Origin: a virus
Reading direction: 5' to 3' (one strand)
DNA length: 64,000 nt
UHGV virus genome: UHGV-0038495
Positions 1 to 53,441 of this stretch are shown here, piece by piece (position 1 is the first letter of the stretch; each line of letters opens with the position of its first letter). A model generated the notes under the pieces. The model was given only the letters and a program-made list of their open reading frames with translations. It had not been told where the DNA came from and did not search any database. The translations under genes and the position numbers were made by a program.

Positions 1-93
1 GTTATACAACCATAGTCTACTAGCTCTTGTGTCTTCAAGTCTTTCAGCGCCCATCCGCTGGACTGTGTAGATAAATCAAGAGCAAGCAATAAT

Positions 94-297
94 TTATTTT
101 GTGCCGGTGCTTCCATGTCCGCCGACGCGAGCTTCATTCTCTGGCTTTACGTTCTCTGGAAGAACATATGGGATAAATAAAGCCTGACCAATGCGGTCGC
201 CCTTCTTTATGAGAATTGGATTAGGGGTCATATTTATGAGCTGGATAAAAATCTCACCCTCGTTCTCAGAATTATTATAGTAGTCCCGATCTATAAT
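94..297 (-). CDS. dut: dUTPase, exon 2 (C-terminal half with motifs III-V)
   Basis: Translation gives IIDRDYY (motif III GxIDxDYRG), RIGQALF (motif IV) and RVGGHGSTG (motif V). Motifs I and II are absent here but present in the ORF at 1784..2110. The reading frame stays open upstream of the listed ATG. Confidence 0.6.
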   Translation of the reverse strand: MIDRDYYNNSENEGEIFIQLINMTPNPILIKKGDRIGQALFIPYVLPENVKPENEARVGGHGSTGTK

Positions 298-1783
298 CAT
301 TTTGTTATCGTAAAAGCTTTTTATCTTTTACTTCTTATAGTTTCCTATAAGTTCGGCGTAACTTTTCATAATTAATATAATTATGTTGCGGCCTCGTGGT
401 AGGATTATATCTTTTCACCTACTACGCTCTGCCCCTGACTAAACTTAGTTTAGCCTTCGGTTCGGATTAGCATATTTATTATAACTTAGCTTTCCCGCTT
501 AATTCCGCAATTTAACCTCGGCATTATGCCTTTCTAAAAGTTGTTTTTTCGAGCAATAAATCAGATAAAGTAATTTTATTCAAATGACTATAAGGAATTC
601 TAATTAAAGGAATGTGGTTATCTTTACACCATTGATTTTTAATATTGTCTCGAATAGGTATTAAATCAGAATAATATTTTGAACTTTTATCAAAATGTTG
701 ATTGCCATCAAATTCAATCAAATATTTATTATCAACATAAAAATCAAATGGTAAAACAAGGATATGTTTACATGTTTCAAATACTTTTTCTCTTTCAAAA
801 GGAATATTATTTTCTTTTAAGATTTGTTCTATCTTTTCTTCTCCTCTTGATTTTCGTTTTTCACATCCACAATTAATGCTACGACCATTTCTTAATGAAG
901 GGCTAGATACTTCTCGAATATTACCACATTTGCATTGACATTTCCAATAAATATTTCCATTATAATCTCTTCTATCAGTTTTTTCTAAAACCGTCCAATC
1001 TCCAAACTTCTTTCCAGTTAAAGGTATTTCTGTAGTATGCTTTTGTATTTTTTCTTTACCGCTCAATCCGGCATCAAGCCAAAGCTTGGTAATCATACCT
1101 CTACTTACTTTAAATTTTTCAGCTAATTCATTTGATGTATGGGTATTATACATTTTACAAATTTCTTCTTTATCTTGTGGAGATAACTTATAATCTTTAC
1201 AGCTTTCTACATCGTACCCTATTTTTTTAGCATAATTTAGGACTGCTGTGGCACTACAGTTATATTTTTCACCCATTTTTTTCGCGTTTTTTAATTCATT
1301 ATAAGATTCAATAAATTCCTCTTTTGAAATTTTTGCTATTTTAGCATTTTTTTCAAAAGAACTTTCAATTAAATAATTATTCTTTTTTAAAAAGTTTCTT
1401 ACTGCCGTACCACTACATCCATATTTCTCTGCAACTTTTTTTAAAGTTCCTAACTGCTCATAATCAGCAATTATTTCTTTTAATTTCTCTTGTGGAAGTT
1501 TTATCTCTTTATGATTAGAATTATCATAACCAATTTTTTTTGCATGAGTTAATACAGTTTTTTTAGAACAACCGTAATAATCTGCTACTTTTTGAGCACT
1601 TTTAAGCTCATTATACTTTTGAATAAAAATTTCATCTGAACCAAAATCAAATGCTTTCATATTTTTTCTCCTTTATTGATTTAATTTTAAAATATAAATA
1701 TTTCTATTATATATAAAAAATATTAATAGCACTTGATAATAATTTGCCCAAACTTTTTAAACTTAGGAGAAAAATCTTCGTCT
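298..1783 (-). mobile_element. Putative group I intron carrying a homing-endonuclease ORF, inserted in dut
   Basis: The two dUTPase halves are separated by 1.49 kb. The upstream exon ends in ...GGT (U before the splice site). The insert ends in ...AAAATG, so G is its last base (omega-G). GC-rich stem-like segments occur at 360-470 in an otherwise AT-rich context. An internal ORF has its own AAAGGAG ribosome-binding site. Confidence 0.5.
524..1660 (-). CDS. Homing-endonuclease-like protein inside the dut intron
   Basis: Four repeated helix-turn-helix modules (VADYYGCSKKTVLTHAKKIGY, VAEKYGCSGTAVRNFLKKNNY, MGEKYNCSATAVLNYAKKIGY, LAEKFKVSRGMITKLW). A Cys cluster (CQCKCG...CGCE). A C-terminal YLIEFDGNQH motif typical of Vsr/DUF559-type PD-(D/E)xK nucleases. 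An AAAGGAG site lies 8 nt upstream of the ATG. Confidence 0.55.
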   Translation of the reverse strand: MKAFDFGSDEIFIQKYNELKSAQKVADYYGCSKKTVLTHAKKIGYDNSNHKEIKLPQEKLKEIIADYEQLGTLKKVAEKYGCSGTAVRNFLKKNNYLIESSFEKNAKIAKISKEEFIESYNELKNAKKMGEKYNCSATAVLNYAKKIGYDVESCKDYKLSPQDKEEICKMYNTHTSNELAEKFKVSRGMITKLWLDAGLSGKEKIQKHTTEIPLTGKKFGDWTVLEKTDRRDYNGNIYWKCQCKCGNIREVSSPSLRNGRSINCGCEKRKSRGEEKIEQILKENNIPFEREKVFETCKHILVLPFDFYVDNKYLIEFDGNQHFDKSSKYYSDLIPIRDNIKNQWCKDNHIPLIRIPYSHLNKITLSDLLLEKTTFRKA

Positions 1784-2110
1784 ACCGAGGGTATTTCCTA
1801 TAAAGAGCCACTGCTTGAGCGGCATTGAGCTTCTTGGGGTAATAGCCAGATAATATCCTTCATCAAGATGGACCTTTAAACCTGTTGAAACCATGGTAAG
1901 TCTACCATCGATTTCTTTAATATTCTTTTCATTTTCTTCGAGTGTATTTGCATCACCCTTTGGATACTGTCCATACTTAGACATAAAAGGTGGAATTATT
2001 GTATCTTTTACTGCGCGCAGGTCAAGTCCCGCAGAACCGGGAGTAGCAGGTTGGGGAAGTGGCAGTCCGCAATCTTTATATTTACTTACAAATTCAAAAT
2101 AATTAGCCAT
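1784..2110 (-). CDS. dut: dUTPase, exon 1 (N-terminal half with motifs I-II)
   Basis: GSAGLDLRA (motif I AGxDL) and ITPRSSM (motif II). The listed ORF reads through into the intron (GRRRFFS*). The predicted splice is after ...GNTLG, which gives ...ANTLG-IIDRDYY, colinear with E. coli Dut NSVGLIDSDY. Confidence 0.6.
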
Positions 2111-2124
2111 TTTAATTCTCCTCT

Positions 2125-2340
2125 CTAATCCCAGAATGTGTCATAGTCTTTAGCTATTTTTACAAGGTAGCCAGAGTCTATGACTTCTCCTTTAGACTTC
2201 TTCTCCTTAAAGGTAGTCCCATAGGACTTTAAGGTGTAACCGCCTTTATTTGCTTCTTCTTTACACTCTTCAATAAAACGAGTTGCTTCTTCTTCTGTAT
2301 CAAGTCTATACTGTTCTACTACGCTAATTAATTTTTTCAT
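2125..2340 (-). CDS. hypothetical small protein
   Basis: ORF tightly packed on the coding strand. No recognisable motif. Confidence 0.35.
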   Translation of the reverse strand: MKKLISVVEQYRLDTEEEATRFIEECKEEANKGGYTLKSYGTTFKEKKSKGEVIDSGYLVKIAKDYDTFWD

Positions 2341-3197
2341 TATTCATTCTCCTTTTGTATTTTATCATCTATATTTTTATATTCCTGCTGCCACCAATCG
2401 GGATGCGCTAATGCTGTGGCGTACGATATGCCGAATGTTTCTAAGAATATTTCATTGATTTTCTGCTCATTTGTTTTTATTGGATGCTCTACAAACCACT
2501 TTTTTAAGATTAATTCAGCTTTTTCAGGATAATTTCTTAAAAAATCCTGGCACGGTATTTGTGTGCCATTGTTATCTGAAGTTAAGGGACAATTTATACA
2601 TTCCGCTGTATTATTACATATTTTTTTATATATTTTTATAGCCTCTTGATAACCTAATGGCTTATCATCTGCTTTTATTTCCACTACTTTCTCCTGTTCT
2701 TTCTTTGGTGGTTCAGTGCTTCTGTAGTCTGACCATTCAAGTATTTGGTCTCCTCTTGCCTTAGACCACTCGATATTCACATATGTACCTCTGTTAAAAC
2801 AATAGCACGTTCGTTCATTATAGACATCAAAACAATTCCATATCGGACTATATGGTGTGCCGCCTTTCCATTTCAATCCTGCTTTATGCATTTCATTGCA
2901 GAAGTCCTCAGCTTCCTCTACAGTTTTACAATGCATAGAAACTTCTTTACCTTTCCAAGCATCAAAGTCAAACGGTGTTTCTGATGCAAGACCGGCGATC
3001 ATGTTGTCATACCAATACCATGCACCTCTATCTTCCACCATTTCGTAATAAAGAGATGTTTCAGAAATAAACGCTCTGTGATGAATATCTTTTATAGTTA
3101 TAACCGTGCCCAAATATTTGTCCATTTTTCCATTAGAATCCATGTCTGTTGTTCTATAAGACACTATCCTTACTCTATCGCCCTTTTTATACTTCAT
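2340..3197 (-). CDS. hypothetical protein
   Basis: 285-aa ORF on the coding strand. Cys-containing C-terminal part (CINCPLT...PCQDF). No family recognised. Confidence 0.45.
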   Translation of the reverse strand: MKYKKGDRVRIVSYRTTDMDSNGKMDKYLGTVITIKDIHHRAFISETSLYYEMVEDRGAWYWYDNMIAGLASETPFDFDAWKGKEVSMHCKTVEEAEDFCNEMHKAGLKWKGGTPYSPIWNCFDVYNERTCYCFNRGTYVNIEWSKARGDQILEWSDYRSTEPPKKEQEKVVEIKADDKPLGYQEAIKIYKKICNNTAECINCPLTSDNNGTQIPCQDFLRNYPEKAELILKKWFVEHPIKTNEQKINEIFLETFGISYATALAHPDWWQQEYKNIDDKIQKENE

Positions 3198-3477
3198 TCT
3201 TATTTATCTCCTGTTTCAGTGTTTTCTTATAATTATCTACTGTTTTTCTGTATGTTTCTAATTTCCAAACTTCTGATTTAATATCATCAAGACATTTATT
3301 ATATAATTCTTCCTCAACGAATTTCTGCCTACTAACAATATTTGCGGTTGAAGATATTACCCATCCACATGGAAAAGTAGCTATAATTGTTATTGCTTTA
3401 TTGTTGGGTGTTGTATATACATCTTTTTTAGCTTTATCAACTAATGAGTCTATATATTCGCTTGTTAATTTCGTCAT
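3187..3477 (-). CDS. hypothetical protein
   Basis: ORF on the coding strand. Confidence 0.35.
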   Translation of the reverse strand: MTKLTSEYIDSLVDKAKKDVYTTPNNKAITIIATFPCGWVISSTANIVSRQKFVEEELYNKCLDDIKSEVWKLETYRKTVDNYKKTLKQEINKNEV

Positions 3478-3501
3478 TTTATTTTAATACTCTTTTCATA
3501 A

Positions 3502-51866: not shown

Positions 51867-51958
51867 TGGAGGAAGGAGTGAGATTCGAACTCACATGCCG
51901 AAGAACTTCGACCTAACGCTTTAGCAGAGCGCCCTCTTTACCATTTGAGTACCCTTCC
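51867..51958 (-). tRNA. tRNA-Ser (GCU), class II with long variable arm, CCA encoded
   Basis: Acceptor GGAAGGG/TCCTTCC. Anticodon stem GCGCU/AGCGU, loop CU-GCU-AA. 7-bp variable-arm hairpin GTCGAAG-TT-CTTCGGC. T arm GTGAG-TTCGAAT-CTCAC. Ends TCCA. Confidence 0.8.
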
Positions 51959-52312
51959 TTATCTATATCCTACTTTATCATACATTGGCGCGAATGTCTT
52001 TACTCTATTATGAGTTACAATACCTAACAATTTCTTTTTATTATCTTTTTCTTTAATATAAATCTTGGATTCATCTGTACTGACCGCGCCTCTACCTTTA
52101 GGGTACGTAAACCGCTTCGCGCATTTTTCAAGATATTTCATATCAACCGTTGGTATTTCCATGCGCCCAGCAGAACTAATTATAATGAATACTGGTAAGC
52201 CATCCTTGTTAAAATAAGGATTGGCTTCAGCAATCTTACCACACCAATCTATATGAAATTCAGAATGAACATCTGTAGTTATAAGGTGTGTCTTTATCTT
52301 TACCTCTTGCAT
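51959..52312 (-). CDS. hypothetical protein
   Basis: ORF on the coding strand between tRNAs. Confidence 0.35.
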   Translation of the reverse strand: MQEVKIKTHLITTDVHSEFHIDWCGKIAEANPYFNKDGLPVFIIISSAGRMEIPTVDMKYLEKCAKRFTYPKGRGAVSTDESKIYIKEKDNKKKLLGIVTHNRVKTFAPMYDKVGYR

Positions 52313-52314
52313 AT

Positions 52315-52521
52315 TTATCTCCTTTGTAAGTTTGCGAAAAAATCTGTTATATCTTTATTTTCTTTTCTTGTTTCTATTGTTTCACTTGGTTCTATACTAT
52401 TTGTTTTATGATTTGGATTATTTTCTTTCCAACATTTCAAAAAATGTCTTGACATTCTACTTTCTTTTTCATTTTCAAATTCGCATTTACATATTGGGCA
52501 AATATACATTTTATTCTCCAT
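52315..52521 (-). CDS. Small zinc-ribbon protein
   Basis: CPICKC....H..C. Confidence 0.35.
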   Translation of the reverse strand: MENKMYICPICKCEFENEKESRMSRHFLKCWKENNPNHKTNSIEPSETIETRKENKDITDFFANLQRR

Positions 52522-52875
52522 TTTAAGTTTTCAGGTTTAGATTAAATTGGCGGCGGATGAAGGTAACGCTCCTTCTCTTTTTGGGTCAAAGCCAAATGTA
52601 CTAACTTTTATACGAATCCGCTATATTAAAGCGGGTTCTAAGGTCAACCCGCAGACCGTTCAGAAAGGGGACAAAAAATGAATAAAAAAATATCTTCAAA
52701 TGGAAACTTAAGCCTTTCTAAGTTTCCTCTCTAATTTTCTCTTTACTCCCGGAGATTTCATATTAATTTCTCTCGCGTTAAGTTTTGCAAGTCGCGCACT
52801 ATAAATTGCTTTCTTCTGTTCTCTTGTCATAATCTTTCTCCTTTAGTATATCTTCAAATTCTTTCCTTTTTTTAT

Positions 52876-52950
52876 TGGTGCGCCCGGACGGTTACGATCC
52901 GACCTAATCGAAATTAAAAGTTTCGTGCCTCTCCACTAGGCTACGGGCAC
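52876..52950 (-). tRNA. tRNA-Lys (UUU), non-canonical T arm
   Basis: Perfect 7-bp acceptor GTGCCCG/CGGGCGC plus ACCA. D stem GCCT/AGGC. Anticodon stem CGAAA/TTTCG, loop CU-UUU-AA. T stem has one T-T mismatch and the T loop is ATCGTAA rather than TTCRANY. Confidence 0.5.
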
Positions 52951-52954
52951 ATGT

Positions 52955-53030
52955 TGGTGGAGGTTAAGAGATTCGAACTCTTGACCTTCTGCGTGCAAAG
53001 CAGATGCTCTCCCAACTGAGCTAAACCCCC
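52955..53030 (-). tRNA. tRNA-Ala (UGC), CCA encoded
   Basis: Acceptor GGGGGTT/AACCTCC with the G3-U70 Ala identity pair. D arm GCTCAGTTGGGAGAGC. Anticodon loop UU-UGC-AC. T arm AAGAG-TTCGAAT-CTCTT. Confidence 0.8.
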
Positions 53031-53367
53031 ATTTATTCCTTTTTCCTCCGTCAGAGCAGATTAAGGATAACTGGCACGCGTACTATAAGGATTTTCTCCC
53101 TCAAGCGGAAAACCCGTTAGAAAATAACTACTTCTAATTTAGCAAATCTATACCTTAGACCTATCGAAGAAACATTTTAAAGCAATCGACTTCCGCGGGT
53201 GCAACTACTTTGCAATGCTACCGTATCTTTAGTGATGTGTATAAATCAGTATCCGAGAGACGCCACGAGGAGGCATTAGAAGACTTTTTATCTCTCATAA
53301 GTGGAAGCTGCAATCTCCCACTTTATCTATCATAATGTGAGGAGGTGAATTATGATACATTTCATGC

Positions 53368-53441
53368 TGGAGCCAATAACGAGAATCGAACTCATAACTA
53401 AGCCTTACCATGGCTTTGTTTTACCTTTAAACTATATCGGC
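53368..53441 (-). tRNA. tRNA-Thr (GGU), CCA encoded
   Basis: Acceptor GCCGATA/TATTGGC (one G-U). D arm GTTT-AAAGGTA-AAAC. Anticodon stem AAGCC/GGCTT, loop AU-GGU-AA. T arm ATGAG-TTCGATT-CTCGT. Confidence 0.7.

Follow-up and report, generated by a model that had tools for sequence, protein, structure and literature searches.

Group I introns of the phage IA type, among them those in T4 td, nrdB and nrdD (sunY), have been reviewed (PMC3984707), and I-Bth0305I is the prototype of the EDxHD homing endonucleases, a family that joins N-terminal NUMOD/helix-turn-helix (HTH) repeats to a Vsr-like nuclease (PMC3239194). Here, we analyzed a stretch of 64,000 nucleotides (nt) of UHGV virus genome UHGV-0038495 (the window), in which the dUTPase gene, dut, is split by an insert, with gene and insert both read on the minus strand. 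We conclude with high confidence that this insert, which splits dut at GNTLG/IIDRDYY (here and below, a slash marks the exon junction), is a mobile group I intron encoding an EDxHD homing endonuclease. The parts of the split gene are as follows, with L010 denoting an intron-less contig from IMG/VR:

1784..2110, minus strand: dut exon 1, with the ATG at 2110..2108 and the end ...GGA AAT ACC CTC GGT; collinear with L010
298..1783, minus strand: group I intron, 1,486 nt, with the omega-G at 298
94..297, minus strand: dut exon 2, starting AUU AUA GAU CGG GAC UAC (IIDRDY), with the stop TAA at 96..94; collinear with L010

A sequence-only reading of this DNA had assigned dUTPase motifs I and II to one open reading frame (ORF) and motifs III to V to another, and we found both on the minus strand where it had placed them. 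The ORF at 2110..1763 (minus strand, 115 amino acids [aa]) contains AGLDL and PRSS and consists of the N-terminal 108 dUTPase residues followed by seven codons of the insert (RRRFFS and a stop), while the ORF at 300..94 (minus strand, 68 aa) contains IDRDY, RIGQALF and GGHGSTG and takes its ATG from the insert's three final bases (300..298). As the same reading had proposed, joining the gene after GNTLG, with T1784 linked to A297, restores a canonical Dut: the 176-aa product (...GNTLG + IIDRDYY...) has all five motifs of a trimeric dUTPase in collinear order, and it matches the Pfam dUTPase family (PF00692) at 73 bits (E 2.3e-20), compared to 37 and 28 bits for the separate halves, as well as the PHROG 135 dUTPase (E 6.5e-39). 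The ligated-exon junction expected from splicing is ...ACCCUCGGU followed by AUUAUAGAUCGG, which can be followed with the 30-mer GGAAATACCCTCGGTATTATAGATCGGGAC. The 1,486-nt insert itself, described earlier as preceded by U and ending in G, was found at 1783..298.

The split did not arise by chance, because L010 (123 kb) carries an uninterrupted dut with collinear flanks. The L010 gene has 176 codons, the same length as the joined Dut, to which its product is 93% identical. Its DNA aligns with window positions 3484..1789 at 90% and with 291..1 at 98% nucleotide identity, and the sole break in this alignment, 1789..291, lies across the insert. Relative to L010, the presence/absence polymorphism is exact to the base. 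At the junction, L010 reads CAAGCAGTTGTC and the window CTCGGT/ATTATA, sequences of the same length that differ at about 8 of 12 bases, and the window junction is similar to the sequences that border the intron in other split dut genes (GTCGGT/ATTATC and the like). Co-conversion during homing would leave a divergence of this kind. The intron-less dut site of L010 is ACCCAAGCAGTTGTCGATAGG, and that of the L224 type is GCGGTCGGTATTATTGATGC. Nine further IMG/VR contigs contain an uninterrupted dut whose junction is exactly GTCGGT/ATHATT, the flanks of introns found elsewhere; these are natural empty sites.

The ends of the intron are marked by a single internal guide that is complementary to both exon ends:

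1661..1783, minus strand: 5' arm of the P1 loop, a 123-nt A+T-rich leader with a conserved TTGGGC at 1751..1746, TATAAT 34 nt further downstream at 1711..1706 and the ribosome-binding site GGAG at 1671..1668
516..527, minus strand: internal guide, in which AUAAU (527..523) pairs with exon 2 AUUAU to form P10 and GCCGAGG (522..516) pairs with exon 1 CCUCGGU to form P1

The 7-bp P1 (CCUCGGU/GCCGAGG) places U1784, the final base of exon 1, in a U·G pair with G522 at the 5' splice site, as in group I introns. P10 has 5 bp (AUUAU/AUAAU), and the tail GAUAACAAAAUG ends in omega-G298, so the exon-final U and intron-final G of the sequence-only reading are borne out in the RNA structure. The guide 12-mer, ATAATGCCGAGG, is found once in 64 kb, with 0.02 occurrences expected. 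It is 5 nt upstream of P3, where the ORF-less relatives L004, L006 and L007 also have their guide. Together, the P1 and P10 pairings fix the splice sites at 1784/1783 and 298/297 and place the whole endonuclease ORF in the P1 loop. Among 12 orthologous dut introns that we compared, P1 is 6 to 8 bp long with the splice-site U·G in every one; at position 6, a C:G pair in the window contrasts with G:C in the 11 other introns, and position 7 takes five pair types (C:G, G:C, A:U, U:A and G:U). P10 tracks exon changes in the same set (AUAAUU/AAUUAU, GUUUG/CAAAU and GUUAUA/UAUAAU), with a mean of 4.75 contiguous pairs when each guide is paired to its own exon and 2.36 when guides and exons are cross-paired. 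A separate candidate, 'AAUACCGAG' of L001-L003 and L005-L008, was considered as a GCCGAGG-like guide and rejected; this conserved sequence corresponds to J5/4 together with P4' in those introns, whose ORF is apparently in the P5 loop.

Downstream of the guide, the RNA contains a P3-P9 core in the canonical group I order, with a P3/P7 pseudoknot:

510..505 with 391..386, minus strand: P3, enclosing P4, P5, P5a, P6, P6a, the P7 5' strand and P7.1 (region 386..510)
497..494/466..463, minus strand: P4
491..489/471..469, minus strand: P5
485..483/476..474, minus strand: P5a
460..459/433..432, minus strand: P6
455..448/444..437, minus strand: P6a
427..423 (GCGUA, 5' strand) with 360..356 (UACGC, 3' strand), minus strand: P7, forming the pseudoknot with P3
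422..418/403..399, minus strand: P7.1 hairpin
385..378/374..367, minus strand: P8 hairpin, followed by J8/7 and the P7 3' strand (region 356..385)
351..345/340..334, minus strand: P9, with a GAAA tetraloop (region 298..351)
331..325/316..310, minus strand: P9.1, followed by the tail to omega-G 298

We built a covariance model (R1) from the dut introns of L021, L022 and L024 only, leaving the window out, with a hand-drawn P3-P9.1 structure. R1 matches the window at 528..299 over the full model length, with 226.8 bits (E 6e-66), and this is its sole match in the 64 kb. In an alignment of 45 sequences, with P7 added as a pseudoknot, 46 of the 55 pairs, including those of P7, show double (compensatory) changes, and 97.5% of cells are paired, a percentage that is inflated by the alignment having been fitted to the model structure. 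Shuffled controls are 74% paired, and controls in which the 3' partners are slid by 1 to 3 columns are 30 to 41% paired; the slid controls, together with the variety of pair types, speak for a real covariation signal. Every core helix of the window is fully paired, and compared to its nearest relatives the window has compensated changes in P3, P6a, P7 (GCGUA/UACGC versus GCAUA/UAUGC), P8 and P9.1. The minimum-free-energy fold of the 231 nt recovers P5, P6a, P7.1, P8, P9 and P9.1, with a z of -2.9. There is no P2, a single hairpin (P7.1) lies between P7 and P3', and P9.1 is present, an architecture that makes the intron phage IA-like. The proposal that the insert is a group I intron is thus upheld by the guide, the covarying P1 and P10, the P3-P9.1 core and the intron-less allele.

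The same RNA family is found in cultured phages. In a blastn search of deposited phages, the insert's final ~135 nt (430..296) are ~70 to 92% identical to unannotated gaps that split tape-measure, capsid, portal and terminase genes of Staphylococcus, Clostridium, Streptococcus and crAss-like phages, with the similarity ending at the 3' junction. Among them is a 296-nt intron without an ORF in the portal gene of Streptococcus phage Javan576 (L009), which scores 59.8 bits with the Rfam group I model, RF00028, above gathering; since it also shares sequence with the window, the window's 3' region can be placed in a genuine group I family. R1 in turn matches L009 at 92 bits. The tape-measure intron of Clostridium phage phiCP13O (L002; 35.8 bits with RF00028), the terminase intron of Exiguobacterium phage vB_EauM-23 (L004) and the capsid introns of crAss-like cr128_1 (L007) are of the same RNA family, with R1 scores across the four loci of 57 to 92 bits. 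A pattern scan of IMG/VR added 80 loci (L101-L180) with 91 strong R1 matches, several on some contigs (three each on L101 and L155). Judged by downstream reading frames, these introns lie in many different genes, and RF00028 would probably miss most of the 91.

At the dut site, the intron is not a one-off, as judged from the sequences of many metagenomic phages that carry intron and endonuclease at this same position. All eight endonuclease homologs that we looked up (P0001, P0002, P0009, P0035, P0058, P0084, P0115 and P0118; 36 to 99% identity, on contigs of ~2 to 176 kb) are preceded, at this same site, by an N-terminal piece of dut, as are those of the IMG/VR loci L021, L022, L024 and L096 when read through. 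The window's arrangement is also found intact in a second sample (L011), and ERR14760798 is among the samples that contain this phage. Among deposited phages, megablast with 20 kb of the window found no relative and tblastn with the endonuclease found no full-length relative; tblastn with the joined Dut found dut always uninterrupted among the best matches listed (796 further records lay beyond these). We also found no report of an intron in a dUTPase gene in the searchable literature. The sequence-only reading had known of no intron in dut, and our searches agree with it for the deposited phage matches listed and for that literature.

Two versions of P3-P6 (window 528..432 compared) share this endonuclease lineage and insertion site. 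The type A core (UUGCGG...GCGGG/UCCGA) is found in the window, L021, L022, L024, L096, L221 and L222, and the type B core (UCGAGC...UCGGUG/UACCGA) in L012, L013, L015, L016 and L019. The dut gene of the window belongs to the 'DYYNN..NEGE' ('YYNN') kind, which elsewhere goes with type B, while its type A core elsewhere goes with 'YRGE' duts. This combination suggests that a ribozyme core may have been transferred or exchanged as a module. Pairwise endonuclease identities, 50 to 58% to all, did not distinguish a type A from a type B origin of the window intron.

The endonuclease gene and the modules of its product are as follows:

524..1660, minus strand: homing-endonuclease ORF, 378 aa, with the stop UAA at 526..524 and GGAG 8 nt upstream of the ATG
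residues ~9-196: four HTH units
residues ~222-266: Cys4 beta module
residues ~272-378: Vsr-like EDxHD nuclease

All of the parts that had been read from the sequence (four HTH repeats, a Cys cluster, LIEFDGNQH and a ribosome-binding site of its own) are present. The AlphaFold2 model contains four three-helix units, Pfam returns weak matches to HTH_50, HTH_11 and HTH_23, and the PHROG matches carry the labels 'intron encoded nuclease' and 'homing endonuclease'. There are more than 1,000 homologs, mostly of 370 to 380 aa and 50 to 59% identity. In a 26-sequence alignment, the invariant residues are C241, C243, C245 and C264 and, toward the C terminus, where the LIEFDGNQH block lies, E291, D306, E316, D318, H322, D338 and K341. 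The order of E291, D306, E316, D318, H322 and D338 fits the EDxHD motif, as judged apart from any sequence alignment to 3r3p (I-Bth0305I D196/H213/D222). The C-terminal domain has a predicted fold like those of I-Bth0305I and Vsr, the N-terminal part consists of HTH repeats, and the ORF is intron encoded, all as in EDxHD enzymes. By this predicted fold, the endonuclease is a member of EDxHD, the known sixth homing-endonuclease family. The architecture had been called unusual for a homing endonuclease; it is instead that of a known family, to which this member adds a Cys4 module and in which it has four HTH units.

Module content varies among endonucleases at the dut site. The L024 protein has 247 aa and no HTH repeats (971-1711), P0118 has 276 aa and about two HTH units (L221 1501-2331), and P0115 has 346 aa and a duplicated Cys module (L222 1501-2541), compared to 378 aa and four HTH units in the window. 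L096 has two endonuclease ORFs in one dut intron (1013-1873 and 1996-2481). Its EDxHD-type ORF, in the P1 loop, extends past the guide and across P3 and P4, and a 161-aa HNH-like ORF lies between P7.1 and P3', so that the core is split into 1831-1998 and 2507-2629. In-frame stops occur in the orthologous genes of L013 (2501-3625), L015 (2501-3610), L222 (1501-2541) and L016 (2501-3664). The source databases read TAG as Q in L013, L015 and L222 and TGA as W in L016, at positions where the homologs have a conserved tryptophan, so that stop codons are apparently reassigned in these four phages. There are no in-frame stops in the window's ORF, and no suppressor is found among the five tRNAs clustered at window 51867..53441 (minus strand: Ser-GCU, Gln-UUG, Lys-UUU, Ala-UGC and Thr-GGU). 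On the other side of the intron, the frame that follows the dut stop (window 1..~110, minus strand) begins ...LLALDLSTQSSGWALKD, starts at or inside the end of exon 2 and leaves the window; we take it to be RuvC-like. Relatives have a Pfam RuvC gene downstream of the dut intron.

The endonuclease ORF ends close to or within RNA elements predicted to direct splicing. In the window, its UAA lies inside the P10 guide, 1 nt from the P1 strand, and in the 11 distinct dut introns whose ORF ends we read (L024 left out) the stop either precedes the guide by no more than ~10 nt, falls within it or comes after it. Among relatives, the earliest stop is 8 nt before the guide and the latest well within P5, and the L016 and L096 ORFs read through P3-P5. 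With the stop at or inside the guide, a ribosome finishing the ORF would mask the guide and block both P1 and P10. The leader upstream of the ORF contains a conserved element, TTGGRC(AAA), followed after 31 to 35 nt (34 in five introns) by TATAAT (window 1751..1746 and 1711..1706, minus strand), and this element is also present in L012, L013, L015, L016, L021, L022, L096 and L221. It may be an internal promoter that would give an endonuclease transcript without the 5' splice site. The TTGGRC-TATAAT spacing is too long for a sigma-70 promoter, and a sigma-70 scan called no promoter in the intron leader. The TTGGGCAAA element is no recurring motif of the window, where it has 4 matches with 3.6 expected, and TTGGRC resembles the J1/3-P3 sequence of some cores. 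We offer only as a tentative idea, one that we think doubtful, that the ORF placement is a regulatory device in which endonuclease translation and dut splicing are mutually exclusive on each RNA, with the leader element giving a separate transcript and cores being swapped as modules.

From this anatomy, we infer splicing, cleavage and homing along the following lines, with splicing by the standard group I mechanism. After transcription, the guide (527..516) would pair with the last seven bases of exon 1 to form P1, with U·G at the cleavage site, and with the first five bases of exon 2 to form P10. Since the 378-aa ORF fills the P1 loop, P1 would close across ~1.26 kb. The P3-P9 core just downstream would fold and bind guanosine, with catalysis by 510..298, and two transesterifications would ligate the exons and restore the 176-aa trimeric-type dUTPase. 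By analogy with I-Bth0305I, the endonuclease would cut an intron-less dut next to the insertion site, and repair from the intron-bearing copy would bring in the intron and a few flanking exon bases.

Several points, besides the inflated pairing percentage, weigh against this interpretation. The search with the Rfam group I model that the sequence-only reading had proposed gave no RF00028 match at the gathering score (50 bits) on the whole window, none at E<=10 on 1..2400, and none, even at E<=1, on ten loci with orthologous dut introns; on the isolated 256-nt core, the match is on the correct strand and sub-threshold (19.2 bits, E 0.007, model 38-253). That alignment assigns the same helices as our hand assignment, and RF00028 includes P1-P2, which here are absent or split. 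The reading had been prepared to give up the intron if no P3-P9 core was detectable, which, taken literally through Rfam, would wrongly have discarded the finding. We found no intron-less allele with the window's own junction, CTCGGT/ATTATA, in IMG/VR or the JGI metagenomes. Searches of PDB sequences with the full protein, the 26-sequence profile and the C-terminal domain alone returned no match to I-Bth0305I or Vsr, so the link to I-Bth0305I is by predicted fold only. The need to close P1 over 1.26 kb, with ribosomes covering the guide, makes the efficiency of splicing in vivo uncertain, and splicing of this intron is predicted from sequence rather than from transcripts or experiment.

The alternative that best survives, though we think it improbable, is that the intron is real by descent but no longer splices, or does so only with a helper, so that dut is a pseudogene or has trickle expression. 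The position of the ORF in the P1 loop and of its stop codon in the guide could both hinder P1, the window's P1 and exon junction are unlike those of the 11 other dut introns, and the Rfam score of the core is far below threshold. However, the exons are intact, 93% identical to the uninterrupted homolog and in possession of all five dUTPase motifs, the core helices have kept their pairing, the sole P1 difference is compensated on both strands, and the arrangement recurs intact in L011. Still less probable is a gene that is split and not spliced, in which a free-standing endonuclease has inserted and the two dUTPase fragments are translated apart and assemble. The nrdA gene of Aeromonas phage Aeh1, split by mobE, is a parallel, and gene callers do report two dut ORFs here, the second with an ATG at 300..298. 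Yet this ATG, which relatives replace by UUG, is accounted for by the ribozyme, whose conserved 3' end is ...AWUG, and has no Shine-Dalgarno sequence upstream, and a split gene leaves unexplained both the 231-nt conserved, covarying core and a guide complementary to both exon ends. An intein, group II intron or insertion sequence, suggested only by the presence of a nuclease ORF in the insert, is very improbable given the in-frame stops 7 codons past exon 1 and a separate cistron with its own ribosome-binding site (against an intein), the lack of a reverse transcriptase or group II Rfam match (against a group II intron) and boundaries that are base-exact relative to L010 (against an insertion sequence, for which no search for inverted repeats or target duplication was made).

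As a group I intron target, dut joins td, nrdB, nrdD, nrdE/F, recA and pol among phage nucleotide-metabolism genes. Gene callers routinely render such dUTPases as two fragments and a 'hypothetical protein', and since Rfam's single group I model misses this intron class, surveys of introns in phage metagenomes that rely on RF00028 undercount them. To our knowledge, EDxHD is among the least studied homing-endonuclease families, with a single characterized prototype. The homologs of the window's enzyme form a large, coherent EDxHD set (members have between two and four HTH units and either one Cys module or two, with every examined context the same dut site) that could serve specificity studies or engineering.

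The closest described system is the recA intron of Bacillus phage 0305phi8-36, which encodes I-Bth0305I (PMC3239194). Like the window intron, it is a group I intron of a phage and lies in a gene of DNA metabolism, and its enzyme likewise has N-terminal HTH/NUMOD repeats and a C-terminal Vsr-like nuclease. The host gene there is recA and the ORF interrupts P5 (PMC3239194), whereas the window intron interrupts dut and has its ORF in the P1 loop; I-Bth0305I has 266 aa, whereas the window's enzyme is longer, at 378 aa, has four HTH units, includes a Cys4 module as an addition and shows no detectable sequence similarity to 3r3p. The T4 introns are also self-splicing group I introns in nucleotide-metabolism genes that contain homing endonucleases with their own expression signals, and they share the extra pairing between P7 and P3' (P7.1) and P9.1. 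Their ORFs, in contrast, occupy the loop of P6 or of P9 and specify enzymes of the GIY-YIG or HNH type, and the T4 introns have P2 and both P7.1 and P7.2, where the window intron has an EDxHD ORF in P1, no P2 and a single P7.1. Fungal mitochondrial introns such as Hypomyces cox3-i2 (PMC4964425) likewise have the endonuclease gene in the P1 loop and a long-distance P1 closure, but they encode organellar LAGLIDADG enzymes and have an unrelated ribozyme subgroup and host. The four cultured-phage loci of the same RNA family (L009, L002, L004 and L007) differ in host gene, in having other endonucleases or none and in carrying the ORF, if present, in other loops (e.g., L5). Thus, a mobile group I intron with an EDxHD enzyme is a known combination, and what sets this one apart is dut as a target not previously reported, a large uncharacterized lineage common in uncultured phages and a ribozyme subtype that Rfam misses.

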